A program made the position numbers and the translations under genes. Below are positions 228-28,259 of a stretch of 28,951 nt of DNA, piece by piece (positions within the stretch are counted from its first letter, which is position 1; every line of letters starts with the position of its first letter). This DNA comes from a virus. The notes beneath the pieces are model-generated. The model was not told the DNA's origin. It searched no databases and worked only from the letters and a program-made list of their open reading frames with translations. Where the stretch lies: IMG/VR virus record IMGVR_UViG_3300005300_000028; one strand, written 5' to 3'.

Positions 228-839
228 TCACCTCAGTATTGATGAACATAATCTTTTAACTTTAGCGAGTTTGTCAACTTCTTTTCTAAAGTTTCTAACA
301 TTAATTTCGAAAATTTCTATCGTTTTCATGTCTTTTGCCTTGACGCTTTTACCCCAAGAAAGCCAGATTTTCCCATACTTTCCACTGTAGGTCTCAGGAA
401 TTGTCGTGTCAAACCCATCGAACGCAAAAAGCACATATGGGTTATTTTCTCTCCAGAATCCAAGATACCATCGCTTTTTGTGTTTAAAATTCGATATAAA
501 CCAGTCCAAACTGTAATCTCTAAACTGTCTGCGGTGTGGAAATCCTATCCAGTCGAATTGCTCAGCAATCTCTTTCTCTTTCTTTTTGTGTAAGGGAAAT
601 ATCCATTCGACATGGGGGTACTGTTCTTTTAACATCAAAGCATTTTCATATTGGTAGTCAGGAGCGATTGCAAATTTTACGTCGTATTTCTCGATACACT
701 TGATTAGGTAATTTACCTGTGCCTTCCTGTCTTTAACGTAGTGGTTGTCAATAAACTCAGGAAAAGACATAAATCCATATTTGTTAATGATTTCTCTTTC
801 TTTAACTGTAAAACATATACATGGTAATGTTGCTATCAT
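228..839 (-). CDS. Hypothetical protein with tRNA-guanine-transglycosylase (TGT/DpdA)-like C-terminal motifs
   Basis: KRWYLGFW...FDGFDTTIPETYSGKYGKIW resembles the TGT barrel pattern kprylmG...vDmFDsv.Pt..a..G; FAIAPD motif upstream. The ORF is solid; the function is tentative. Confidence 0.4.
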   Translation of the reverse strand: MIATLPCICFTVKEREIINKYGFMSFPEFIDNHYVKDRKAQVNYLIKCIEKYDVKFAIAPDYQYENALMLKEQYPHVEWIFPLHKKKEKEIAEQFDWIGFPHRRQFRDYSLDWFISNFKHKKRWYLGFWRENNPYVLFAFDGFDTTIPETYSGKYGKIWLSWGKSVKAKDMKTIEIFEINVRNFRKEVDKLAKVKRLCSSILR

Positions 840-1042
840 ACATTACCTCTCCCCCACTTTATTTTATCCCAGATTCGTTCGTGGATATAATAGATAACCA
901 CGCTTCCCATTAGATACAGCACGATAACCTCGATGCTTTTCTCAACACTTTCTGTTGCCCAGTAAGCAATCATAAATGCCACAGCAGTTACCCAGATTCG
1001 GTAAGACACAGCTTTAACAAGGCTTCGCTTCCTCGACTCCAT
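836..1042 (-). CDS. DUF2061-family small membrane protein
   Basis: ES-RKRSLVKAVSYR...YYIHERIWDKIKWG matches the DUF2061 consensus (RS.xKa.sWR...YY.HER.W..i.wG). Likely ATG at 1042 with a GGAGG RBS; the track start at 1096 is too long. Confidence 0.8.
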   Translation of the reverse strand: MESRKRSLVKAVSYRIWVTAVAFMIAYWATESVEKSIEVIVLYLMGSVVIYYIHERIWDKIKWGRGNV

Positions 1043-1325
1043 AAGCCAACCTCCATACTGCACATATTTTCTTTTTCCTTGCCAACCGTTTCTCAACCAT
1101 TCCTCTGTTCTCCAGAATCGACAACCAGTATCTTATTGTAGACCTGTCAAACCCCGACACTTCTTCAAGTTCAGAAAGTGTATACCATTCGGAATCTAAG
1201 CTTTCTAAGAACTTTCTGATTTTCCTAAACATGTGTTTACTGCGGTAATCAAGCGTATCTTCGCATCTGTAACAAACTACTGATTCTGATGTTGTTTCGT
1301 TTTTACCACATAAGATACACATCAT
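1014..1325 (-). CDS. Zn-finger plus winged-helix (ArsR/MarR-like) DNA-binding protein
   Basis: CxxC...CxxC at the N-terminus, then TLSELEEVSGFDRSTIRYWLSILENRGMV helix-turn-helix and wing. Confidence 0.65.
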   Translation of the reverse strand: MMCILCGKNETTSESVVCYRCEDTLDYRSKHMFRKIRKFLESLDSEWYTLSELEEVSGFDRSTIRYWLSILENRGMVEKRLARKKKICAVWRLAYGVEEAKPC

Positions 1326-2088
1326 AACCAGCACCCATCAAGATAAATCCAACCAAAATGAGCAATCTGACTCCGTAACGAACTAAAGCCTCTATATGCT
1401 GTTTCATGAACACTGACAACAGTATCAAGATGATAGCGACAGCGAAAACTGTCTGTTTTACTTGTATTAACATCAGAAAAGACAAGACACCGAGAACAAA
1501 GACTGTTATGCTCAGAATTAGTGAATCAACTAATTGAGGGAATGTTAATACTCCTGTCCTTTTGTCAGCTTCAAGGTCTTGAACCTGAACCATTATGTTG
1601 TGGGCGACAGACAGTAGACCAAAAGCGAGTGGAAACGTTAAATCAGTTAAACCTGTGCTCATGTAGCCAGCAATAAAGTATGAGAGACCCAAGCAAGTGT
1701 TACCGAATACTGCTCTATCCCCAAGAACGTTGTATCCTATACTTGTCATGTAGCCTATAAGACCAACAATCAGATACATTGTATCGTATAAGGATAACCA
1801 GAGCAGCGATAAATACGATACTATGAAGAAAGTAAACGCAATCAGTTTTGCGTGAGAAACAGGTACTTTCCCACTTGGCAATGGTTTCCAAGGCTTGTTT
1901 ATTTTGTCCTGTCTTATGTCACAGATTTCGTTAATCACCGTGAACGACGCATTCCCGAATCCAACAGCTAAAAGAATTAACAAGCTTTCGAAACTTCCCC
2001 AAAGTCCGCTTTTGGTTAATAAAGCCCAAGAAGCTATGAAACCCAGTAGAAATAATGGTGGTCTGATTAACTTAATGTAACTCATCAT
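1303..2088 (-). CDS. UbiA-family prenyltransferase, DGGGP-synthase-like
   Basis: N-terminal YIKLIRP; first Asp-rich motif NEICDIRQDKINKPWKPLPSG; second motif QDLEADKRTGVLTFP; about 8 hydrophobic TM segments. Likely start 2088 (GGAGG RBS). Confidence 0.85.
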   Translation of the reverse strand: MMSYIKLIRPPLFLLGFIASWALLTKSGLWGSFESLLILLAVGFGNASFTVINEICDIRQDKINKPWKPLPSGKVPVSHAKLIAFTFFIVSYLSLLWLSLYDTMYLIVGLIGYMTSIGYNVLGDRAVFGNTCLGLSYFIAGYMSTGLTDLTFPLAFGLLSVAHNIMVQVQDLEADKRTGVLTFPQLVDSLILSITVFVLGVLSFLMLIQVKQTVFAVAIILILLSVFMKQHIEALVRYGVRLLILVGFILMGAGYDVYLMW

Positions 2089-3083
2089 TTTCTTAGCCTC
2101 CACATCAGTTTTAGACCTTTCCAGACTGAAGCATCAAGGTTTCGCATATTTGCCACCTTGATAACATCTCTGACCTTGAACAAAGCCTTAAACCAGCTCT
2201 CGTTCAGTGTTTCCACGAAATCGTACTGCGTTATGACCCATGAAGTCTCTTTCCAGACCAAATCAGAGTAGATGTCTATTATTAAGTCTATGTCGTCTGC
2301 ACCGTACTCTATGGCTTCATGAAGACATTTAGCGGTTTCAAGAGCAAGGGTGTTTCCTTCACCAAACGCAGAGACAAATCCACCTGCCTCACCAATACCA
2401 ACTATGTTAATGCCGTATATTTGCTTAAAATACGATACAGTGTAGTCCCAGATGATTGGAGACTTGCATGCACATTCTATGTCGTTGAACTTGATTTCGT
2501 ATGTTTTGTTAAGCTGACCAATCAAGAAATTAACCTGTTCTTGTGTAAATCCACCAGCACCAATGTGCCATTCGTCTTTGCTTAAAGGAAATGCCCATGC
2601 ATAGCCGTATGGCTTTGCGTAGATGTAAATACAGTCAGAATCAAGTGTTGTAACCTTAACTCTGTATTGTTTAGTTACAAGATACTTTATATCAACACCA
2701 CGCAGCAGTGCTCTGCTGTGCCCTGTTGCATCAACAATCAAATCTCCTGAGTAGTTGTTTGGAACCTCATAAACAACGTCTAACGATTTTCTCATGTCGT
2801 TTATGAACCTTGGCTTGTCAAAGATAACAACATCCCTGATTTTGAAATCAATTCCGTTTACAATAGCTTCTTTAGGTCTCATTAGAACGTAGCTATCTGA
2901 ATCAACGTCAATCAAATTGCAGAGCTTTTTGACCTTGCTGTAGTTAGCCCAGCCAAATGCACATGGTGAAGGACACTTGCTGTTCTTGTATTTCTCGTAA
3001 ATTTTGTAGTTGTGTTCCGAGCGTTCAAGTAAACACGCTAAATAACATCCAGCCATTCCGGCTCCAAATATCTCTATCTTCAT
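2085..3083 (-). CDS. Geranylgeranyl-reductase-family FAD oxidoreductase
   Basis: GAGMAG Rossmann motif, conserved PC(AFG) cysteine, exact GGR signature PxxYxWxFP (PYGYAWAFP), and GEAGGFVSAFGEG resembling the GDAAG...GEG motif. Likely start 3083 (MKIEIFGAG). Confidence 0.8.
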   Translation of the reverse strand: MKIEIFGAGMAGCYLACLLERSEHNYKIYEKYKNSKCPSPCAFGWANYSKVKKLCNLIDVDSDSYVLMRPKEAIVNGIDFKIRDVVIFDKPRFINDMRKSLDVVYEVPNNYSGDLIVDATGHSRALLRGVDIKYLVTKQYRVKVTTLDSDCIYIYAKPYGYAWAFPLSKDEWHIGAGGFTQEQVNFLIGQLNKTYEIKFNDIECACKSPIIWDYTVSYFKQIYGINIVGIGEAGGFVSAFGEGNTLALETAKCLHEAIEYGADDIDLIIDIYSDLVWKETSWVITQYDFVETLNESWFKALFKVRDVIKVANMRNLDASVWKGLKLMWRLRK

Positions 3084-3090
3084 AACACCA

Positions 3091-3969
3091 CTACTCAAAA
3101 GCTCTTTCTCCAAAATAAATCTCCCAGAAGTCATTAAAGTACCTGTTAATCAACCTTCTTAGCTTCATTATGTTGATACTCCCCTTTGTATTTTTCTTTG
3201 CTATTGAATTAAGACGTATTACGTAGTATTCCGTGCTTTCCTGTGCACGCTCCGTTACTATTTCTGAAACTTTATAATCGTACTCGTAGTCTGGTTCTGG
3301 ATGCTCACGTCCGTGTTCATAGTCTACTAACCAGCAGAAGTCAAGAGTTAGTGGAGAGTTATACCACAGTATTCTTTGGGGATAGTTATTCATAACTAAT
3401 AAATCAAAAGGTTCGCACATCTGATATACTTTCTCAAAAAGTTCGCAGGCACATGGAATTGCTAACGCATCTGTTACTTTACGTATATCAATTTCCACTT
3501 TAATACCGAGCTCTTTACATTTTTCTCTTAGTAAGACAACTTCCGCTAAACCAAGGTCTTCTCGTGTTCTAAGGTAAATTATAACCTTATCTATACTGTC
3601 AACTGTTACTGGATTTGTAGAATAAAACTCACTTTCCCATGGCATCATTGTGTCATCCCAAAAAATACGTCCATTAGGTGAAGCCCATGTTCCATGTTTA
3701 CTAATTTGTACGAAAGCTCTCAGGTAGTCAAGGTAATAGAACAATTCCTTCTTAAAAACGATTGATGTTGTAACGTTATAAGAAAAAGTGGTTAGTACAG
3801 TTTTATCAGTTGCACACACTCTACTTGAGTCAGATAACTGAGGAAGCCAAGCACCATCTTGTAATATAAATATAGCTGTCTCTGGTTTTGTGAACTTATG
3901 GATAGCATCAGATGAGAACTCTCTGCTCCAAACCTTATAATATTTGCTAAGCTCGTCAATGAAATTCAC
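3091..3969 (-). CDS. Hypothetical protein, 292 aa
   Basis: Long ORF co-oriented and abutting its neighbours; no motif recognised. Confidence 0.7.
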   Translation of the reverse strand: MNFIDELSKYYKVWSREFSSDAIHKFTKPETAIFILQDGAWLPQLSDSSRVCATDKTVLTTFSYNVTTSIVFKKELFYYLDYLRAFVQISKHGTWASPNGRIFWDDTMMPWESEFYSTNPVTVDSIDKVIIYLRTREDLGLAEVVLLREKCKELGIKVEIDIRKVTDALAIPCACELFEKVYQMCEPFDLLVMNNYPQRILWYNSPLTLDFCWLVDYEHGREHPEPDYEYDYKVSEIVTERAQESTEYYVIRLNSIAKKNTKGSINIMKLRRLINRYFNDFWEIYFGERAFE

Positions 3970-4606: not shown

Positions 4607-4749
4607 ATTAGTTCCTTTATTGATTCTACAAACTTTATTAGCACTTTTTTCACGTCATCAACACTCTGAACGTTTATGATTTCGTTCTCTATCTCTTCGA
4701 TGAGTCTTTTAACTTTTTTGCGTTTGTTCAAGTCATCAAGCAACTTCAT
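4603..4749 (-). CDS. Small helical hypothetical protein, 48 aa (MKLLDDLNKRKKVKRLIEEIENEIINVQSVDDVKKVLIKFVESIKELI), missed by the ORF track
   Basis: GGAGGTG RBS upstream; TGA overlaps the ATG of the next gene; fills the gap. Confidence 0.55.
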   Translation of the reverse strand: MKLLDDLNKRKKVKRLIEEIENEIINVQSVDDVKKVLIKFVESIKELI

Positions 4750-5911
4750 CTTTCGCCACCTCCAAAATTTCGTCTTTCATGTGCCTCCACATCTCCTGAA
4801 GGAAGCTCAAAGCTCTTGTTGTTCCCGTTGAACCAAGGATTTCGATTTCACCCATCAAGTATGCCGTTTCAAGGTCTAACTCGTCTTTCGCAAGCCTGAA
4901 CAACGTGTCAACGTCTGTCATTATGGTTAAGTTTACTGCCTTAGGTTCTTTCAGAACAATAAGTTTACCGTCTGTTAATTTCAGGTAAACCTGAGTCACT
5001 ATGTCTCCACCGCTGTGAACAATGAATTCAATCACGTTTCCACCAAATCCGCTATCTGTCAGTTTTTTCAGGTTTACTGATTTGTTCAGCTTAATTATTG
5101 TCTTTGTTACAACCTTCACGATGTTCTTCTTGAACGAATCAGACACCCTCTTCATTATTCTGTCAAGGATACTGCTACCGACTGGTTTTGACTCATCTAT
5201 GCGAGCAACGACTTCATGCATGATTGGTTCGACTTCTTCAGGAATTACTGGAACACCAGCTTGAATTATTTCAAAGATATCAGGGCTTAGCGGAATATCG
5301 CCAAGGAACGGAACGTTAAACTCTCTGCAAATCTCCTGAGTTTTTCCGTCGCCAAAGAACTTATACACCGAACCGTGTTCACACTTGAAATAAGCCATGT
5401 TGTTAATTACTCCGAGAACTGGAACGTTGTAATATTTCAAGATGCTGAGGATTCTCTTAAGGTCTCGCCAAGATGAAGGGATAGTAACGACAACAGCACC
5501 GACAATGGTTTGATAGTAAGCCTTTAAAACACCTCTGAACAAATCAGATGCTCCAGCAGGGCAATCTATTATCATTATCGCGTTCTTTAGGTTTACTCTC
5601 CACTCTGCAAACTGTAAAACATCAAGCAACATCTGAACGTAGCTGTCTCCCCGCATTGATACTGCTTTGTCTTTTGTTACTAAACCGAAACTGAAGAAGT
5701 CTAAGTTGTCAAGGTGAACAACCTCAATTCTGTTTGGCTCTATGCGGATTTCTTTGTCTATTTTCAGCATATCGGCAAGATTTGGACTGTCTACGTCTGC
5801 ATCAACCAGTATGGTGTCTCTACCCAGCTGGCTGAGATAGGTAGCAAGGAAAACTGACGTTGAAGACTTTCCTGTTCCTCCTTTAAGCGAAACAACCAGA
5901 ACGGTTTTCAT
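4736..5911 (-). CDS. Mrp/NBP35 (MinD/ParA superfamily) P-loop ATPase fused to a C-terminal SCP2-like lipid-binding domain
   Basis: Deviant Walker A KGGTGKS, DADVDSPN, IDCPAG, GVINNMAYFKCEHG...FG and FLGDIPL are all Mrp-like. The C-terminal ~110 aa with TIMTDVDTLFRLAKDELDLETAYLMGEIEILG resembles the SCP2 consensus (ti..d..tf..l..g.l....af..Gki.i.G). Confidence 0.75.
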   Translation of the reverse strand: MKTVLVVSLKGGTGKSSTSVFLATYLSQLGRDTILVDADVDSPNLADMLKIDKEIRIEPNRIEVVHLDNLDFFSFGLVTKDKAVSMRGDSYVQMLLDVLQFAEWRVNLKNAIMIIDCPAGASDLFRGVLKAYYQTIVGAVVVTIPSSWRDLKRILSILKYYNVPVLGVINNMAYFKCEHGSVYKFFGDGKTQEICREFNVPFLGDIPLSPDIFEIIQAGVPVIPEEVEPIMHEVVARIDESKPVGSSILDRIMKRVSDSFKKNIVKVVTKTIIKLNKSVNLKKLTDSGFGGNVIEFIVHSGGDIVTQVYLKLTDGKLIVLKEPKAVNLTIMTDVDTLFRLAKDELDLETAYLMGEIEILGSTGTTRALSFLQEMWRHMKDEILEVAKDEVA

Positions 5912-19096: not shown

Positions 19097-19585
19097 TCAT
19101 TCTATTACTTTAAGCGTCGTACCTAACACAAATTGTTCAGCCAAATCGAGTTCACCAAAAGAAATCGCAAGCTGTCTAAGCAGTTCAATCTGCTTTTTGA
19201 TAGTTCTGCGTTCACTGATTTTAGTGGTTTCATTGTATTTTCGCTTTAAGTCGTTGAACTGAAGCTTAAGTTGAAACCTAACTTTGCTTTTCAGTGTTTC
19301 ATCACTGCTCGGTGCGTATTCAAGAATATAGATGTCGTTTCTGACGTTCAGTTCGTTAAAAAGTTTAGTATAATGTTCAACGAGTCTCTTTGCCCTGTCA
19401 TATTGCTTTGCCGGAAGAACGTAGACCGAATAGTTTATCCTTGTGCCCATGCTTTTGAGTTCATTGACGAAATTGTTAATTAGTCTGTTCCATTTTGTAA
19501 CCAGTGCTCTTTCGCTTTGGCTGACCAGTTCAAGTGGTGGCGGTCTCTGGATGTCGTACACTATACTAAAATACTTCCCCATCAT
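19097..19585 (-). CDS. Hypothetical protein with a Cas2/PaaX/ChrB-N-like ferredoxin-fold N-terminus and a helical C-terminus
   Basis: IVYDI...GTRINYSVYVLP motifs; likely start 19585. Confidence 0.5.
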   Translation of the reverse strand: MMGKYFSIVYDIQRPPPLELVSQSERALVTKWNRLINNFVNELKSMGTRINYSVYVLPAKQYDRAKRLVEHYTKLFNELNVRNDIYILEYAPSSDETLKSKVRFQLKLQFNDLKRKYNETTKISERRTIKKQIELLRQLAISFGELDLAEQFVLGTTLKVIE

Positions 19586-19605
19586 CTTCTCACCTCCTCC
19601 AAATT

Positions 19606-19995
19606 TCACAACGATTCGGTTACCATCTCGACCTTCAAGATTTGTTTAAACTCTTTAAACCTCAAGTGGCGAGTCATACCAACTGCTTCAAGTATTACAT
19701 CGCTGTCAGGATTGTATTCTGAGCAAAATTCGCCTTTGCAGTTCTGATGAATCGCTTCCATCTCTGCCCAGATCCACACGATGTCTCTGTACTGTGCTAA
19801 TGCTGCAATCATCGATAGCGGCAGCACCACAACAGCATACTGAGCACCAGCCGACTTAATGTCGTAATACACTTCTCTGACGTCTCTGAATGTTTTACTG
19901 ATTTGTATTACTTCTACGTCGTCACCAAGCTTCTTTTTCAATTCGTTGAGTTGAGCCGGTAACGGTTTATGTCTACTAACCCATGCAACTTTCAT
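19606..19995 (-). CDS. Small alpha/beta (Rossmann-like) protein with an N-terminal SRH motif
   Basis: MKVAWVSRHKPLPAQLNEL...AVVVLPLS; family not securely identified. Confidence 0.6.
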   Translation of the reverse strand: MKVAWVSRHKPLPAQLNELKKKLGDDVEVIQISKTFRDVREVYYDIKSAGAQYAVVVLPLSMIAALAQYRDIVWIWAEMEAIHQNCKGEFCSEYNPDSDVILEAVGMTRHLRFKEFKQILKVEMVTESL

Positions 19996-20180: not shown

Positions 20181-22130
20181 TCACCTCACTATTTTGTTAA
20201 TCACGAGATTAAACAACCGTTTCGGCAATTGTTCTATATCCACCACTTCTTCCCACGTCCATTCAGGACCGAACACTCGTCTCATGATTGTCTCTGAAAC
20301 TTCTACATCAATGAACAGCGTGTACACATTAATCCCTGACCTTCTTGCTCTTTCTATTGCTTCTCTTGTCCACTCAAAGAGTATATCGCTCGGATAGCGT
20401 CCGTTTTCAGGTGCCCCATCTGTTATCAGTACAATCATTTTTCTCTGTGCCGTTGATTTGTTAAGCAAGTTTACTGCATAATGAACTGCCGCCCATGTTG
20501 GTGTATAGTTATCTGGAAAAACACTGCAAATCTCCTCTACAGTTTTTAGTTCTCTCAAGTACACTGGATTACCTCCTTTCTCGCAACTGAACGCTATGAC
20601 TCTCATGCTCACGTTTTTGACTTTCTGTAACGCTAAGAACAGCGTTGCACACGCAGACGATGCTATACTGATTTTATCTCCTTCCATTGAACTGCTTGCA
20701 TCAAGAAGAATTACGATATCAAATCCTGTATCTATTTCTTCATTTTCGAATGGGAGTCCGTTTTTGGTTACTTTGTGTTTTATAGTTTCATCGATATCGA
20801 AGTCTAACCCAGTGATGTCGTTGTCAACTCTCATTTTGTTCTTAATTTTGTTAAGTACTTTCGCAATTCTGTCAGCTAAGACAGTATCTGGTTTCGAGTG
20901 TGGCCGAGAGTAGAATTGAATATCGCTACTTGTTCTTACAAATATGTTCTTTTTCTCAAAGTTATTAGGATTTATACTTTTGATTTTCTTCAGTTTCTTC
21001 TCAATTTCTTTCAACATCTTTAGCCCTTCAAGTTCGGCTTCTCCCAAAATCTCTTTGACGGGTTTCTCGAATATACTTTCGTCAATGTCGTTATGATTTG
21101 TAATACTTTCATATTCAGTTTTAGGTAATGATTTGACGCTATCAGGTAAAATAGATTCGAGTTCTTTAGAATCGATATACTCTGACAGCTTTTTTTCTGT
21201 TACTTCTTCTTGGTTCTCTTCCCCTGTCTCTTCTTTTTCTTGATTCTCCTTTTCTGTCTCTTCTTCTTCTTGGTTCTTTTCTCCTGTTCCTTGGTTATTC
21301 TCTCCTCTTTCTTCTTTCTCTCCTGTCTCTTCTTGTTCATCCCTTTGACGTTTTCCATGTTCATTTCCTCTTTCGCTCCCTTGTTCATTTTTAGTGTCTT
21401 CTTCTTGTCCTCCCTCACGCTCTCTTATTTCTTTCGTCACTGTTACTCTTATTTCACTTACTTCTTCTACTTCATCTTGCGTGTCTGATTCACTTCCAAC
21501 TACGACATATACATTACGTTTAAAGTACTTCTCAAGGAGTTTCAATGTCTCCACAGTTGCTACAATACTTGCCTTCCATGACTTCCCCTCGACAGTTTTT
21601 AGTATTTTCAAGAACTCTCTGCAAACCTCCTTGAGCTCTGGGTCACTGATTTCGTTCAAAACATCTGGGTCGCAACGGACAGCATTTAGAATGTCAACTA
21701 TGTGGTCACTGATTATCAGGTCTTTTGCAACAGCCTTTAGTTGCTCTTCTCTGACAACCTTAGAACCACGGTAGAACTTGTTCCACATCCAGTCTACTCG
21801 GTAGTCCTCGATGATATTTAAGAGGTATCTGATGATAATAGATAAGTATGTGTAAGATTCCACGTTTATCTCTTTTCTAATTATGTCTACTGCCTTATCC
21901 ATGTCAGGAGTTTTAAAAACCACATGAGAAATCTCGTGTTCGAACCTCCTATAGTAAAATTTCCAAGGTTCATTACTGTACCTTGGCATTAGAATCTCTG
22001 CACTCTTCTCTTTAATTTCTACTGCAGGTCTATCTACGTCGGTAAACTTTAGCGATACGTATTTTCCACTCAAATGCTCAAAAATTTTCTTTGTCTTGTG
22101 TAAAACTGACCTCTCTATTGACTTCATCAC
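20181..22130 (-). CDS. vWA-domain protein (CobT/NorD-like MoxR partner) with an N-terminal HExxH domain and an acidic linker
   Basis: FEHEISH...NIIEDYRVD, E-rich repeats (EETGEENQE), and MIDAS motifs DASSSM, TPT and ITDG. Confidence 0.85.
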   Translation of the reverse strand: MMKSIERSVLHKTKKIFEHLSGKYVSLKFTDVDRPAVEIKEKSAEILMPRYSNEPWKFYYRRFEHEISHVVFKTPDMDKAVDIIRKEINVESYTYLSIIIRYLLNIIEDYRVDWMWNKFYRGSKVVREEQLKAVAKDLIISDHIVDILNAVRCDPDVLNEISDPELKEVCREFLKILKTVEGKSWKASIVATVETLKLLEKYFKRNVYVVVGSESDTQDEVEEVSEIRVTVTKEIREREGGQEEDTKNEQGSERGNEHGKRQRDEQEETGEKEERGENNQGTGEKNQEEEETEKENQEKEETGEENQEEVTEKKLSEYIDSKELESILPDSVKSLPKTEYESITNHNDIDESIFEKPVKEILGEAELEGLKMLKEIEKKLKKIKSINPNNFEKKNIFVRTSSDIQFYSRPHSKPDTVLADRIAKVLNKIKNKMRVDNDITGLDFDIDETIKHKVTKNGLPFENEEIDTGFDIVILLDASSSMEGDKISIASSACATLFLALQKVKNVSMRVIAFSCEKGGNPVYLRELKTVEEICSVFPDNYTPTWAAVHYAVNLLNKSTAQRKMIVLITDGAPENGRYPSDILFEWTREAIERARRSGINVYTLFIDVEVSETIMRRVFGPEWTWEEVVDIEQLPKRLFNLVINKIVR

Positions 22131-23281
22131 TTCACCTCTACACCGAATATCGAGTAAATTCTTTGAGCAACTGTCTTCTTCTCGTTCTTATCTTCGTAGC
22201 GGTTGACAACCGTGTTCCTCAATGCCATTTTCAGTGCATTCATGTCATCAAGAACGCTTCTGTAGCTGTTGTAGACCTGAGCGAATATTGCTAAGTCTCT
22301 TGTACTCAAAGCATAACTGAGGTCACCTGCGGCATATCCATTTCTGGTTTCAATTGCCAGTGTGATTAACAACTTTCTCAGGTCTTGGTCGAGGTCACTG
22401 ATTTTCTCCAGAATTCTTGACTCCTCATCTTCTAACGGATAATCAATGTAAACTTCTGCAAATCTTGACCTCAAGTCCTCATTGAGTTCATGAACACCAC
22501 CGTAGTACGATGGGTTCATTGTACCGACTATCAAGAGTTTACAACCGTTTTCGAGTCTGTAAATCTTGCCAATCTCTGGTATGTAGACGTGTCTTCGCCA
22601 GTCCAATAGCTGATTGAGCACTTTCTGCATTTGTGGTGTCAGAGCATTAAGTTCCTCGAAAACGAGAATCGCTTTTCCGTACTGGTTCGCCACTGTGATT
22701 GCCACTGGCATTACTCCGAGCTCATATACAACCTCATCACCGACTAACAAGAACCTGCCTACCAAGTCCTGCCTCTTGGTGTTCTCTGAGCAATCGAATT
22801 GAATAATTGGTATGTTGTGCTTTGCGGCAAATGCGGCAATACTCAAGGTTTTTCCGACTCCTTTTGGACCGACAAGCAAGAGTGGAATTCCGCTCTCCAT
22901 GTGAGCTTTGAAAAGCTGTTCTTCGTAGTCTCGTGGTACGTATTCGGGAACACTCTTTGGTAGATAGTCTTCAGCTTTCACTGGTAGAATCTTGATTCCG
23001 TTACTGGCTTTTTCCTCTGGTCTTACGAAGTTGTTAATTGTTTTCTGAGGTATAGTTGCCTGAACCGGAAGTGCCATGTCTCTGTAAATTGTTACTGTTT
23101 TATTGGTTAGGCTCACTTCAACTTTGTACCCCATTTCCTTGAGTTTTTTCCCGACAGTTAGGAGGACGGTGTTGTCGTTTTCTTCCCTGTAGTTGTAGCC
23201 TCTAAATTGCTTGAGCAACTCACGACACTCACTCAACCCTAAAACAGTAACTTTTTCATCTACTAAGTTTTTCCATTCCAT
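22127..23281 (-). CDS. MoxR/CbbQ/NirQ-family AAA+ ATPase
   Basis: GPKGVGKT, DLVG, Walker B variant FEELN, and TMNPSYYGGVHELNEDLRSRF. Confidence 0.88.
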   Translation of the reverse strand: MEWKNLVDEKVTVLGLSECRELLKQFRGYNYREENDNTVLLTVGKKLKEMGYKVEVSLTNKTVTIYRDMALPVQATIPQKTINNFVRPEEKASNGIKILPVKAEDYLPKSVPEYVPRDYEEQLFKAHMESGIPLLLVGPKGVGKTLSIAAFAAKHNIPIIQFDCSENTKRQDLVGRFLLVGDEVVYELGVMPVAITVANQYGKAILVFEELNALTPQMQKVLNQLLDWRRHVYIPEIGKIYRLENGCKLLIVGTMNPSYYGGVHELNEDLRSRFAEVYIDYPLEDEESRILEKISDLDQDLRKLLITLAIETRNGYAAGDLSYALSTRDLAIFAQVYNSYRSVLDDMNALKMALRNTVVNRYEDKNEKKTVAQRIYSIFGVEVK

Positions 23282-23639: not shown

Positions 23640-24350
23640 TTAAATTTGCACTAAGAAGAATTTAAATTGCAACTGTTTCAGCTCTTCTTCTGACAACACT
23701 GTTCCTTCTGGAAGTCTCTGTAATAGCTGAAATACTATCAGCCTGTCGCCTTTCTTGAGCTTTATCTCTTTCCTCTCTGCTTTGACCTCAGTTCCGAGCA
23801 GTTGCGAAAGTATTTTCGCTGTTGACTCGTGTCCAATAGCACTCTCTACTTCTTCATTAGCGATGATTTGCTTCACCGTATCAACATCAACTACTTTGAT
23901 GCTTATTGTTGCTTCTTCTGTTTCGAGCATGTTCAAGCTGAACGCATTAGCAATGTATGTTTTGCTTGTTTTCTTGTTCTTCTCACGTTCAAAGATTTCA
24001 GCTATCTCTTTGATTGCTCTGATTCTATCTGATTTCGTGTCAAAACTTCCAACGTAGAGCTGTTCAATTTTCTCAGCTGTAACCCTAACCAAAGCGATTC
24101 CTGTCGATGGGTGCTTCGTTGAGCCACTCGCAAATGTTGCAACAACGAACGCCCCAACATGGACTTTGTCATCAATCCATGCTGGGTCTCCTGTCACCCG
24201 AAGAAATCTTCCTTCGAATGCAAACCCATTCTCCTTGCTTACATCGACACGTTCGAGCTCTTTTGCCCAAACTGTTCTTTTGGCCTTGCGTGGTCTCCCT
24301 AAATCAAGGTCTCCTTTCTCAAGTATTACTACATTTCCATCCACCAACAT
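23640..24350 (-). CDS. acrIII-1: Fusion protein: unknown ~129-aa N-terminal domain plus C-terminal DUF1874/AcrIII-1 ring nuclease (about 23640-23963)
   Basis: YIANAFSLNML, SAIGHESTA (catalytic His), ERKEIKL..GD and QRLPEG.VL match STIV B116/SIRV1 gp29. No internal ATG at the domain boundary; likely start 24350. Confidence 0.88.
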   Translation of the reverse strand: MLVDGNVVILEKGDLDLGRPRKAKRTVWAKELERVDVSKENGFAFEGRFLRVTGDPAWIDDKVHVGAFVVATFASGSTKHPSTGIALVRVTAEKIEQLYVGSFDTKSDRIRAIKEIAEIFEREKNKKTSKTYIANAFSLNMLETEEATISIKVVDVDTVKQIIANEEVESAIGHESTAKILSQLLGTEVKAERKEIKLKKGDRLIVFQLLQRLPEGTVLSEEELKQLQFKFFLVQI

Positions 24351-24351
24351 C

Positions 24352-24786
24352 TTACTCACCCCCTAAATAATAAAATGTAACAAAATACGAGTCATAAACT
24401 CTTGTTATCTTCATAGCCCATTTCAGATTCTCAACTCTGACTTCAAAAGTCTTGAATCCATCGTGAACCCCGTATTCTTTAACTGTGGTCTTGGCATCTT
24501 CGTTCACGATTAACTTGCTATCTGTGTTTCTGGTTTCGTCAGGTTCAACAAGATTGAACCTCCACTCGTTGTCAGCTCTGACATAGTCAATCCCCAACAT
24601 TCCGTCCTTTGCGTTCTCCTCAACAAGTCTCAGAAGTTTTTCTGCCTTCTCAAAGTCCATCTTTTTGACTCTCGGCATTCTTTTGAAGAAGTTACTAACT
24701 TCCCTATATGCTCTCTCTCTTCTCATCCTCACTTCTCTCCTGAAAGACTCCAACTCAAAACCAGTTTTTTCCATCCCTGTTTTCAT
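24352..24786 (-). CDS. Hypothetical protein, first gene behind a BRE-TATA promoter
   Basis: ATG at 24786 with a GAGGTGAG RBS. Confidence 0.65.
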   Translation of the reverse strand: MKTGMEKTGFELESFRREVRMRRERAYREVSNFFKRMPRVKKMDFEKAEKLLRLVEENAKDGMLGIDYVRADNEWRFNLVEPDETRNTDSKLIVNEDAKTTVKEYGVHDGFKTFEVRVENLKWAMKITRVYDSYFVTFYYLGGE

Positions 24787-27702: not shown

Positions 27703-28044
27703 TTACATTACTTCACCAACAACAGGTTCGACCACCAAAAACTTGTACGGTAGCTGTTTCAACTCCTCTTCTGTCAGGATTTTCCCCTCAGGAAGCCTTT
27801 GCATAAGTTGGAAGACAATGAGTTTGTCGCCGTACTCTATCTTCACCTCAGTTCTGTTCATTGGAACCTCAACTCCAAGCAACTGGCTTAACAACTTTGC
27901 TGTGGCCTCATGACCAACGGCACTCACGAACCCTTTAGATATCATCCTCTTTATCCACTTAATGTCCTCTGGATATATCAAAATCAATTCTCTCTCATGC
28001 CTCAGCATATTTAAGCTAAATGAATTAGAGATGTACACTGTCAT
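27703..28044 (-). CDS. acrIII-1: Stand-alone DUF1874/AcrIII-1 ring nuclease (anti-CRISPR, type III)
   Basis: YISNSFSLNML, SAVGHEATA, NRTEVKI..GD and QRLPEGKIL; ATG at 28044 with a GGAGGTGAGGAGA RBS. Confidence 0.92.
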   Translation of the reverse strand: MTVYISNSFSLNMLRHERELILIYPEDIKWIKRMISKGFVSAVGHEATAKLLSQLLGVEVPMNRTEVKIEYGDKLIVFQLMQRLPEGKILTEEELKQLPYKFLVVEPVVGEVM

Positions 28045-28049
28045 TCTCC

Positions 28050-28259
28050 TCACCTCCTCCCCGCAAGACAGTAAAACAGTTCGTCAATCTCTTTTACAAG
28101 TTCTTGATAACACTCCGACATGTCAGACTCTGACAGTTCTTTAAGGTCTCTTCTTATTTGTTCAAGTCTCTTTATAAGTTCTGTTAGCTCTTCAATTCTT
28201 CTTCTGGCTATGTATATTTTTTCGTCAATTCTTCTCTCAATCAGCCATGCCAAGTACAT
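28050..28259 (-). CDS. Small coiled-coil hypothetical protein
   Basis: Heptad pattern and GGTGAG RBS. Confidence 0.6.
   Translation of the reverse strand: MYLAWLIERRIDEKIYIARRRIEELTELIKRLEQIRRDLKELSESDMSECYQELVKEIDELFYCLAGRR

Follow-up and report, generated by a model that had tools for sequence, protein, structure and literature searches.

A UbiA-family prenyltransferase gene and a gene for a flavin reductase of the geranylgeranyl reductase (GGR) superfamily form a real and coupled pair in a 28,951-nucleotide stretch of DNA from hot-spring metagenomes (IMG/VR record IMGVR_UViG_3300005300_000028; this whole stretch is called the window), and the pair is probably a working two-step isoprenoid module of a roughly 50-kb integrating mobile element of hot-spring archaea. 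Archaeal viruses and plasmids have been thought to use host lipids unchanged or through selective uptake. In the papers searched, we found no report of an archaeal virus or plasmid with enzymes for both prenyl transfer and prenyl saturation. The genes are a conserved and co-inherited core of a group of elements from hot-spring and hydrothermal environments, rather than an isolated passenger. An active module would mean that mobile elements change the isoprenoids in the membranes or quinone pools of archaea, with a bearing on lipid biomarkers, virion membrane formation and host physiology during infection. Activity would also set apart two UbiA clades that lack characterised members and probably have a new acceptor in each case, and would provide the prenyl reductase AF0648 of Archaeoglobus fulgidus, so far isolated, with a family having four invariant cysteines and with a testable partner.

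Arrangement and inheritance of the gene pair

Positions of the two genes, their motifs and their neighbours are listed in Table 1. Both genes are encoded on the minus strand, and their overlap can be read directly from the sequence. For the reductase we used the start at 3083 (MKIEIFGAG), which has GGTG a few bases upstream; a longer ORF from 3134 is unsupported, since nearly all homologues have the same beginning at the 3083 position. Both genes are under purifying selection (compared with a 92%-identical relative, the reductase gene has a dN/dS of 0.15 and the transferase gene one of 0.30), and sequence composition is flat across the pair, without a break.

Table 1. Location of the gene pair, its motifs and related features (positions in the window, except for the last row)
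Feature	Position	Strand	Basis or remark
Short GGR-superfamily FAD reductase, 332 aa, AF0648-like family	2085..3083	-	Profile, fold, A. fulgidus homologue
GxGxxG dinucleotide (FAD) binding motif GAGMAG	3048..3065	-	Sequence
First invariant Cys pair CPSPC	2961..2975	-	C37 and C41 invariant in 26 sequences; CxC in cellular homologues
PxxYxWxFP-x8-GxG, GGR substrate-cavity signature	2553..2612	-	PYGYAWAFP, 8 residues, GAG; aligns to GYWWYFP of SaGGR
Second invariant Cys pair CxC	2466..2474	-	C204 and C206 invariant; SaGGR without Cys there (alignment)
GEAGG...GEGN, counterpart of the GD(A/S)G...G FAD motif	2352..2393	-	Alignment
ATGA stop/start overlap	2085..2088	-	Reductase TGA 2087-2085 over transferase ATG 2088-2086; couples both genes
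UbiA-family intramembrane prenyltransferase, 261 aa, UbiA-1 clade	1303..2088	-	Pfam UbiA, E 1.9e-22
UbiA motif 1 NEICDIRQD, NxxxDxxxD (predicted Mg2+/diphosphate site)	1906..1932	-	Aligned to MjDGGGPS
UbiA motif 2 variant Y-x5-R	1714..1734	-	Y119 invariant, R125 nearly invariant
UbiA motif 3 QVQDLEAD, QxxDxxxD	1564..1587	-	Invariant Gln in place of the first acidic residue of DGGGPS
Small winged-helix (TrmB/ArsR-like) protein	1014..1334	-	Between UbiA-1 and DUF2061; Pfam TrmB 2.6e-5
DUF2061 small membrane protein	836..1096	-	Shortly downstream of UbiA-1; Pfam 4e-10
292-aa ORF without family match, poorly conserved	3091..3969	-	Ends 8 nt before the reductase start
ParA/Mrp (NUBPL) P-loop ATPase with C-terminal SCP2 lipid-binding domain	4736..5911	-	ParA 3.8e-44, SCP2 9.5e-7
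UbiA-2 in locus L161	12819-13622	-	Pfam 5.8e-22

The overlap, both Asp-rich UbiA motifs and the exact GGR signature had been claimed by an earlier, sequence-only reading of the window, and all of them are present as described; an invariant Cys is also present in the region expected for the conserved Cys that this reading named. Its statement that GGGP synthase (GGGPS) and CarS are absent agrees with the scans: a domain of either kind was found neither in the scanned ORFs of the window (most of those of at least 100 aa) nor among the precomputed Pfam calls of a 51-kb relative, Ga0065719_106590. The element also showed no gene for a polyprenyl diphosphate synthase, so the prenyl donor must be supplied by the host.

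About 12 distinct related loci (designated by L numbers) have the two genes next to or close to each other, usually with DUF2061 and the ParA/Mrp-SCP2 ATPase alongside. Besides the window, the two genes are adjacent or within a few kb of each other in L006/L161, L005, L007-L010, L002/L003, L011, L012/L164, L060, L159 (= L074), L160 and L019; gene order varies across these loci, and identity ranges from 98% down to about 35%. DUF2061 adjoins UbiA-1 in L002, L003, L005-L009, L011, L012/L164 and L060. The ATPase lies upstream of the pair in a synteny common to L001, L002, L003, L006 and L164, and ATPases of about 31% identity are encoded close to UbiA genes in L015, L163 and L019. The 292-aa ORF is in the same transcription unit as the reductase and its counterpart in L006 is 43% identical, while the winged-helix protein, with a TrmB score just under the cut-off, is conserved in close relatives only.

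A divergent second UbiA paralogue, UbiA-2, is encoded elsewhere on elements (L161, L152, L160, L013 and L015/L017). The more distant loci L015 and L163 have UbiA-1, UbiA-2 and the ParA/Mrp ATPase, to which L015 adds a canonical GGR_cat reductase; in the available DNA of L013, L020, L021, L163 and L167, all with UbiA-1, the family reductase was not found. Since a coupled prenyltransferase and reductase travel together on many elements, a saturated isoprenoid membrane compound is probably made or altered.

Families of the reductase and the transferase

Sequence comparison assigns the reductase to a family of short proteins, with A. fulgidus AF0648 among its members, rather than to the lipid GGRs. 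The family profile finds the solved GGRs first (SaGGR at 2e-8 and TaGGR at 1e-6, the next fold class following at 2.8e-5), and the structural model (pLDDT 90.5) has TaGGR 3OZ2 and SaGGR 4OPU and 3ATQ as its best Foldseek matches (E from 4e-17 to 1e-15, TM by query 0.70-0.74). Although lipid GGRs are the top fold and profile matches and their cavity signature is kept, the element reductase is only 14-16% identical to them, is about 60-120 residues shorter and has two extra invariant pairs of the CxC type. It is below the curated GGR cut-offs (GGR_cat, 19.6 against 27 bits, 8.7e-4; TIGR02032, 39.8 against 158.8, 4e-10) and obtains 18.1 bits from the DGGGPL-reductase model NF041080, for which the cut-off is 580. 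With the HMM of its own family, members score 340-490 bits and a canonical GGR_cat protein 25 bits. The window reductase carries the full PxxYxWxFPx7-8GxG, of which YxWxFP and GxG are invariant family-wide and the first Pro is not. C41, in C-A-F/W-G, is invariant and, judged by its region in the sequence, may be the counterpart of Cys47, the conserved flavin-adjacent Cys of the solved GGRs.

AF0648 and the element reductase have in common a short length (about 310-345 aa in the family), GxGxxG, GYAWAFP-x8-GxG, GEGN and the four invariant Cys. They differ in setting, since AF0648 is an Archaeoglobi gene placed between icd and an AbpE-like gene without a UbiA gene nearby, whereas the element reductase is coupled with UbiA. 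In a 2,178,400-bp one-contig genome, which we take to be that of A. fulgidus DSM 4304 with icd as AF0647, the sole member of the reductase family is found at 582,788-583,717, directly after icd; it has 312 aa, and its Tyr150 lies within GYAWAFP, agreeing with Tyr150 of the published AF_0648 model (review PMC10821996). The window reductase is 35% identical to this icd-adjacent Archaeoglobus homologue over 334 aa (E 9e-50), and the sequence data support its identification as AF0648. The menaquinone-specific prenyl reductase AF0648 of A. fulgidus was reportedly described by Hemmi et al. in 2005, in J Bacteriol 187:1937.

The cellular clade of the reductase covers Archaeoglobi, Alkanophaga, Bathyarchaeia and Nitrososphaeria, groups among which saturated-menaquinone producers occur. 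In a tree with 66 cellular rows, the element reductases are the sister clade of the cellular ones (92% support), set apart by a branch of 0.88 (99% support), and are not nested within the AF0648 clade. Because of this sister position on a long branch, the specificity of AF0648 need not extend to the element reductases.

The transferase scores 80 bits with Pfam UbiA (cut-off 34), and its model (pLDDT 90.6) has about nine long helices, corresponding to the UbiA fold, with AfUbiA 4TQ3 and MjDGGGPS 7BPU and 6M31 as the best Foldseek matches (2.6e-7 to 1e-6, TM about 0.65-0.7). The closest solved protein is MjDGGGPS 6M31 (2e-12). In common with the DGGGP synthases (DGGGPS; 6M31/7BPU, and 4TQ3), UbiA-1 has the 9-helix fold, motif 1, the DxxxD of motif 3 and the INKPxxPLPSG signature, in the form INKPxKPLPSG. 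Motif 1 aligns to N62, D66 and D70 of MjDGGGPS, and the corresponding N53, D57 and D61 are invariant in UbiA-1. For motif 2, Y119-x5-R125 of UbiA-1 stands against Y125-x5-K130 of MjDGGGPS in a loop alignment with a 3-residue length difference, and Arg replaces the Lys. In motif 3, D183 and D187 are retained as D171 and D175, whereas D180 is replaced by Q168 in all 11 UbiA-1 sequences. The motif residues N62, D66-x3-D70 and D180 of MjDGGGPS have been defined, and the Ala mutant of D180 is inactive (PMC9385802).

The top three NCBIfam models of the transferase are all of DGGGPS type, namely NF009523 followed by NF009521 and NF009522, and the scores are below the cut-offs for each of them (69.5 against 269, 55 against 296 and 47 against 353 bits). 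NF009523 is the Archaeoglobi DGGGPS model, with which L146 and L147 reach 320 and 292 bits; genuine DGGGPS references give 262-495 bits, the highest being the Thermococcus DGGGPS. ChlG models come next with 46.6 bits, far below their cut-off. The transferase is not of MqnP, MenA or UbiA type either, with 40 bits from TIGR01475 (cut-off 181) and no match to MqnP.

In quick maximum-likelihood trees with SH-aLRT support only, UbiA-1 and UbiA-2 are each a clade of their own (100% and 98% support). Metagenomic DGGGPS-like proteins cluster with the DGGGPS references and without UbiA-1 (93% support; a 97% split in a larger tree), and the MqnP-like references are a separate clade (99%). In one tree UbiA-1 stands next to the DGGGPS clade, but support for this deeper order is just 44%. 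The UbiA-1 family is small and distinct: a search of 1.84 billion representatives gave 51 clusters at E<=1e-30. In the phylogenetic check proposed with the sequence-only reading, UbiA-1 fell outside DGGGPS and also outside the MqnP-like references, and the reductase came out as sister to the AF0648 clade.

Proposed pathway and alternative readings

The analysis shows how the two genes are built, the superfamilies and folds to which they belong, their conservation and joint inheritance, and that they lie on an element; the prenyl donor and acceptor, the source of electrons and any gain for the element are what we infer. Judging from its family, UbiA-1 would ionise a polyprenyl diphosphate of the host, most likely C20 geranylgeranyl diphosphate, at its Mg2+-binding Asp motifs and move the prenyl chain onto a membrane-resident acceptor. 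By homology with AF0648 and GGRs, the soluble FAD enzyme would then saturate the double bonds of the chain, with electrons coming probably from a low-potential donor, as for AF0648, rather than from NAD(P)H. Conserved synteny suggests that the SCP2 domain of the adjoining ATPase may hold or present the lipid, and that DUF2061 and the second UbiA paralogue may add further steps. As an idea, the four invariant Cys of the reductase might receive an Fe-S cluster from the Mrp-like ATPase. The same logic is known from ChlG/ChlP and DGGGPS/GGR, in which a UbiA-family enzyme adds a C20 chain that is then saturated by a flavoenzyme of the GGR family; the element has no phototrophy context, and its likeness to ChlG/ChlP is an analogy of mechanism only.

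Several points speak against such a working module. The two halves point to different known substrates, the transferase being nearest to DGGGPS and the reductase nearest to a menaquinone-specific enzyme; the element reductases are a long-branch sister of the AF0648 clade; some UbiA-1 loci showed no family reductase in the available DNA; and the prenyl donor has to come from the host. For the acceptor, a distinct compound of the element's own is our tentative choice, since neither of the two element UbiA clades joins any reference clade. A quinone-like aromatic head is a somewhat weaker candidate and GGGP (the archaeol core) a slightly weaker one again, the rest being left to something else.

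The module may instead prenylate an aromatic head and saturate its tail, and so make or modify an electron carrier of the host membrane that resembles menaquinone or another quinone; we consider this doubtful. A saturated prenylated quinone-like product had been offered as an alternative in the sequence-only reading, and its reductase half has gained from the finding that the nearest characterised relative, AF0648, is the menaquinone-specific prenyl reductase by which A. fulgidus obtains partly saturated menaquinone side chains (PMC10821996). The distribution of the cellular clade fits the same view, but the element reductases are only its long-branch sister. On the transferase side, neither UbiA-1 nor UbiA-2 is of MqnP, MenA or UbiA type. 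Also against this reading, the 51-kb element showed no further gene of a quinone pathway, be it for a methyltransferase or for Mqn or Men enzymes. The SCP2-domain protein adjoining the pair is reminiscent of UbiJ, whose SCP2 domain holds ubiquinone intermediates. As with UbiJ/SCP2-type proteins, SCP2 is encoded beside polyprenyl-acting enzymes; the element SCP2 differs in its fusion to a ParA/Mrp P-loop ATPase.

We regard as unlikely the original proposal that a DGGGP synthase forming the second ether bond on host GGGP works together with a DGGGPL reductase to give, or to give more of, a saturated archaeol-type membrane lipid, for example for a virion membrane. The closest solved relative, the order of the NCBIfam models, the INKPxKPLPSG signature and the one tree with an adjoining DGGGPS clade agree with this proposal on the transferase side, and the full cavity signature and GGR-like fold do so for the reductase. 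Against it stand the sub-threshold scores of the transferase, its position outside the DGGGPS clade and the invariant Gln at the site of D180; UbiA-1 also differs from DGGGPS in being borne on mobile elements together with a second UbiA paralogue. The reductase falls far short of the DGGGPL-reductase cut-off and of the length of lipid GGRs, and its family includes a menaquinone-specific enzyme. Neither the naming of the UbiA protein as DGGGP synthase nor that of the reductase as a lipid GGR is supported.

A self-contained lipid route appears improbable. In such a route, a small polar backbone would receive one isoprenoid chain from each of UbiA-2, replacing the unrelated GGGPS of cells, and UbiA-1, acting as the second step; the reductase would then saturate both chains, and the SCP2-ATPase would transport the resulting lipid. 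If true, the element would specify an ether lipid of its own, to be used in a virion membrane or to remodel the host envelope, and this would be the first known case of an archaeal virus or plasmid with a pathway for lipid-core biosynthesis.

The carrier element

The pair is inside the mobile element and outside host flank. The window encodes PolB, RFC, primase, ERCC4, a Cas4-like nuclease and two STIV B116-like (DUF1874) proteins, and the pair is embedded in this co-directional set of replication and anti-CRISPR genes. Element genes of the same orientation are found on both sides, with the replisome upstream and, in the relative, an AAA ATPase, an S8 protease and an integrase downstream. The gene order of Ga0065719_106590 closes on the far end of the window, and this 51-kb relative, in which the element is complete, has a tyrosine integrase and is without cellular housekeeping genes. 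That the pair is host chromosome beside an integrated element, or a decaying host fragment of recent capture without a role in the element, is very hard to believe: integration does occur, since an integrase is present on the relative, and UbiA-1-like genes are also on a 2.2-Mb contig, but more than 10 divergent elements carry the pair in their interior, both families form element-specific clades, and the frames are intact, under purifying selection and without a compositional break. The flanking chromosome that the sequence-only reading had allowed for is thereby set aside.

The carrier is a roughly 50-kb integrating archaeal mobile element, either a virus or a plasmid. The designation "virus-like" is unproven because no Pfam or PHROG match to a capsid, portal, terminase or other virion hallmark was obtained in the window or the whole 51-kb relative, and PHROGs gave nothing structural for 20 uncharacterised proteins of the two; a divergent capsid could escape recognition. 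IMG/VR scans with the reductase, the reductase alignment and the UbiA alignment gave no relatives of either protein, and tblastn found no match for either protein in INPHARED phages or for the reductase in PLSDB plasmids. Together with the literature search, these results agree with the earlier remark that such a pair was not known to have been described among viral auxiliary genes.

An identification as an ANME-1 spindle virus (Itzamnaviridae-like), prompted by the enzymatic arm with PolB or ThyX, is unsupported given the hot-spring source; prenyl or lipid genes are unmentioned in the ANME-1 virome paper. The 320- and 322-aa neighbours are not paralogues, and no phage match was found for the 320-aa protein. 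Atlas look-alikes of two uncharacterised proteins score below 0.9 and are leads only. The same holds for a beta-helix-like Atlas model of low confidence and for a 483-aa protein, the N-terminal stretch of which resembles a phage tailspike (49% over 45 aa, E 4e-4).

Layout and conservation of the gene pair

All sizeable ORFs of the window are carried by the minus strand, and the GC content is flat across it (0.35-0.43). A reductase gene and a UbiA-family prenyltransferase gene (UbiA-1) form the pair studied here; coordinates are collected in the table below. Because the TGA of the former occupies 2087-2085 and the ATG of the latter 2088-2086, the ATGA overlap claimed by the sequence-only reading is real and can be read directly from the sequence. 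The reductase start at 3083 is the N-terminal position in nearly all homologues, and GGTG is found a few bases 5' of it. The other motifs noticed earlier were also recovered, namely both Asp-rich motifs of the transferase (NEICDIRQD, motif 1, and QVQDLEAD, motif 3) and, in the reductase, the entire cavity signature of geranylgeranyl reductases (GGR), PYGYAWAFP-x8-GAG, with the invariant Cys in CPSPC; GAGMAG and GEAGG...GEGN are additional reductase motifs. The observation of a coupled UbiA and GGR-type pair is confirmed. Against a 92%-identical relative, dN/dS was 0.15 for the reductase and 0.30 for the transferase.

Coordinates of features in the window and in related loci (L-handles) fetched for comparison
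Feature	Locus	Position	Strand	Remarks
UbiA-1 gene	window	1303..2088	-	261 aa; downstream member; end at 1303
ATGA stop/start overlap	window	2085..2088	-
Reductase gene	window	2085..3083	-	332 aa; upstream member; best start reads MKIEIFGAG...
Four Cys of reductase	window	2961-2975, 2466-2474		two CxC or CxxxC pairs
ParA/Mrp (NUBPL) ATPase	window	4736-5911	-	fused to C-terminal SCP2 lipid-binding domain
Cas2-like ORF	window	19097-19609	-	170 aa; borderline, PF09827 5.8e-5, at cut-off
MoxR-type AAA ATPase and VWA protein	window	20181-23281	-	pair kept in 51-kb relative
STIV B116-like (DUF1874)	window	23640-24359	-	Pfam 3.9e-28; fused to unknown N-terminal domain of ~130 aa
STIV B116-like (DUF1874)	window	27703-28053	-	Pfam 4.9e-27
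CBM96 protein	L161	11906-12829		close to 483-aa protein
UbiA-2	L161	12819-13622	-	Pfam 5.8e-22; ~12 kb from pair
483-aa protein	L162	8357-9808
QueD, QueE, GTP cyclohydrolase I, TGT-like gene	L002	1-4482
dUTPase and ThyX	L159	970-2869
icd/reductase/AbpE_bact trio	L004	6766-9642
icd/reductase/AbpE_bact trio	L168	2497-5422
Second reductase-family paralogue	L158	5001-5951

All fetched loci were scanned with HMMs of the two families, whose members are rare and mostly unnamed. The reductase gene adjoins, or lies within a few kb of, a gene for UbiA-1 or its divergent paralogue UbiA-2 in the window and in the following loci: L006/L161 (the 51-kb relative described below), L005, L007-L010, L011, L012/L164, L019, L060 (a contig in an Aerophobetes bin), L160 (with an integrase), L002/L003 (a 17.5-kb contig in a Thermoplasmata MAG bin, with 7-deazaguanine genes) and L159 (apparently the same as L074, with which it agrees in family scores and in its PolB/ERCC4 matches; this 40-kb element encodes ThyX, dUTPase and PolB and was placed in the bin of a Thermococcus MAG). 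Since the order of the genes differs between loci and identities go down to about 35-40%, long-standing co-inheritance of the pair is indicated. DUF2061 lies downstream of UbiA-1 in most of these loci, and the ParA/Mrp ATPase gene lies upstream of the pair in many related loci; L015, L163 and L019 have ATPases about 31% identical to that of the window in the vicinity of UbiA genes. UbiA-2 is present also in L152, L160, L013 and L015/L017, and its counterpart for this window would lie beyond the window's end. We consider it likely that the pair is an element-owned, coupled module for prenyl transfer and chain saturation, in which, judging from synteny, the SCP2 domain may offer the lipid to the reductase, a soluble enzyme.

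The element carrying the pair

Upstream of the pair and in the same orientation is a replication and counter-defence gene set consisting of a family B polymerase, an RFC-like clamp loader, primase-like proteins, ERCC4 and Cas4-like nucleases, a Sak4-like ATPase, the MoxR-VWA pair, a DNA methylase and two STIV B116-like (DUF1874) genes, which we take to belong to the AcrIII-1 ring-nuclease anti-CRISPR family. Neither a CRISPR array nor another cas gene was found near the Cas2-like ORF. Locus L164 has a MoxR/DUF2201 version of the MoxR-VWA pair. In L002, the QueD, QueE, GTP cyclohydrolase I and TGT-like genes directly precede the polymerase, which suggests 7-deazaguanine DNA modification on that element; in L159, the dUTPase and ThyX genes lie beside the polymerase and the reductase-UbiA pair.

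The JGI contig Ga0065719_106590 (51,092 bp; the 51-kb relative, loci L006, L161 and L162) matches the window at 86-92% identity in most of the aligned stretches, falling to about 74% in the MoxR-VWA region. Beyond window position 1, it adds an AAA ATPase, an S8 protease, the UbiA-2 gene, the CBM96 protein, the 483-aa protein, a tyrosine integrase and about 30 ORFs with no family match. Past the integrase, B116-like, MoxR, VWA and Cas2-like genes follow, matching the far end of the window, and no cellular housekeeping genes were found on this contig. Since the gene order closes on itself and such genes are absent, the pair lies inside an integrating element roughly 50 kb long and is not flanking host chromosome, the alternative that had been kept in view earlier.

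The sequence-only reading had also looked to a capsid or terminase on the same contig as a sign of a virus; capsid, portal and terminase genes were found nowhere on the element, in the window or the 51-kb relative, by Pfam or PHROGs. IMG/VR has no relative of either protein of the pair. The polymerase is nearest to those of haloarchaeal tailed viruses, but at just 28% identity. Two leads emerged, both from the 483-aa protein: a short N-terminal stretch that it shares with phage tailspike or hypothetical proteins (49%, E 4e-4, across 45 aa) and a beta-helix-like Atlas model of low confidence. Both this protein and the CBM96 protein might bind receptors as part of a virion. We have left "virus-like" open and therefore use the name "mobile element". 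The window stretch occurs in sequencing runs labelled hot springs metagenome.

Text searches for UbiA, prenyltransferases or geranylgeranyl reductase in archaeal viruses gave nothing relevant, and the ANME-1 virome paper does not mention prenyl or lipid genes. INPHARED phages gave no match for either protein, and PLSDB plasmids none for the reductase, the one protein compared.

The reductase and its cellular relatives

Curated models match the reductase weakly (GGR_cat, 19.6 bits vs 27; TIGR02032, 39.8 vs 158.8). The profile of its family ranks solved GGRs first (SaGGR of S. acidocaldarius, 2e-8; TaGGR of T. acidophilum, 1e-6; next class, 2.8e-5), and the top Foldseek matches of its AlphaFold model (pLDDT 90.5) are TaGGR (3OZ2) and SaGGR (E 4e-17, TM 0.74). 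Homologues sharing some 35% identity are widespread among Archaeoglobi and are present also in Alkanophaga, Bathyarchaeia and Nitrososphaeria; none of these cellular genes adjoins a UbiA-1-like gene. In the family tree, the element reductases form one clade (92%), which is sister to the full set of 66 cellular rows across a long branch (0.88, 99%). The gene is not a recent capture.

In Archaeoglobi (28 loci), the reductase gene like AF0648 of A. fulgidus invariably lies between icd and an AbpE-like (AbpE_bact, PF27030) gene; ends within this trio often overlap. A one-contig genome of 2,178,400 bp, which we take to be A. fulgidus DSM 4304, has a single family member (E<=1e-20) at 582,788-583,717, directly after icd, presumably AF0647, and this 312-aa protein has Tyr150 in GYAWAFP. 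The icd neighbour, the length, Tyr150 and the presumed genome and gene identities together strongly identify the icd-adjacent cellular homologue as AF0648. According to the review PMC10821996, the AF_0648 model has two cavities with Tyr150 between them, and AF_0648 is the enzyme of Hemmi et al. 2005, a menaquinone-specific prenyl reductase. The four Cys of the element reductase are invariant across the AF0648-like family and missing from solved GGRs; a metal, Fe-S or redox-active site may be formed by them. A second paralogue is present in many Archaeoglobi in other surroundings, between a small conserved ORF on its upstream side and TldD/PmbA on its downstream side; it may or may not be AF_1637 of PMC10821996.

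The transferase and its possible acceptor

UbiA-1 of the window matches Pfam UbiA with E 1.9e-22 (80 bits vs a cut-off of 34). Its family is small (51 clusters at E<=1e-30 among 1.84 billion representatives) and is separated by a score gap from ordinary UbiA proteins. The closest solved relative is DGGGP synthase (DGGGPS) of M. jannaschii (MjDGGGPS, 2e-12), and the best fold matches of its model (pLDDT 90.6) are AfUbiA (4TQ3) and MjDGGGPS (7BPU/6M31). Three DGGGPS-type NCBIfam models rank first, yet with 47-70 bits against cut-offs of 269-353, whereas a genuine Thermococcus DGGGPS gives 495 bits and Archaeoglobi enzymes 292-320 on NF009523. Compared with the residues given for MjDGGGPS in PMC9385802, UbiA-1 retains N62, D66, D70, D183 and D187, but has Y-x5-R for Y-x5-K in motif 2 and an invariant Gln for D180, whose mutation cripples MjDGGGPS (PMC9385802). 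Motif 3, D-x2-D-x3-D, is complete in UbiA-2 and incomplete in UbiA-1.

In two quick ML trees, UbiA-1 (100%), UbiA-2 (98%), MqnP-like proteins (99%), heme O synthases (100%) and DGGGPS references with metagenomic DGGGPS-like proteins (93%) are separate clades, whose branching order neither tree settles; UbiA-1 falls outside both the DGGGPS and the MqnP-like clades. Since UbiA enzymes group by acceptor (PMC9385802), we infer from this separation that neither GGGP nor the menaquinone precursor would be the acceptor of UbiA-1 or UbiA-2. Our leading guess, a tentative one, is an acceptor of the module's own. The quinone-like product with a saturated prenyl chain, the second proposal of the sequence-only reading, is favoured by the tie of the reductase to AF0648 and appears doubtful, as neither UbiA-1 nor UbiA-2 is MenA- or MqnP-like and other quinone genes are absent from the element. 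Its first proposal, a DGGGPS with a lipid GGR, is improbable, having failed several membership tests: the DGGGPS-model and TIGR02032 scores, the separate UbiA-1 clade and the D180 replacement.

Two more distant loci, L015 and L163 (on a 2.2-Mb contig), have UbiA-1, UbiA-2, a third UbiA and a ParA/Mrp ATPase together, and L015 additionally has a canonical GGR_cat reductase.
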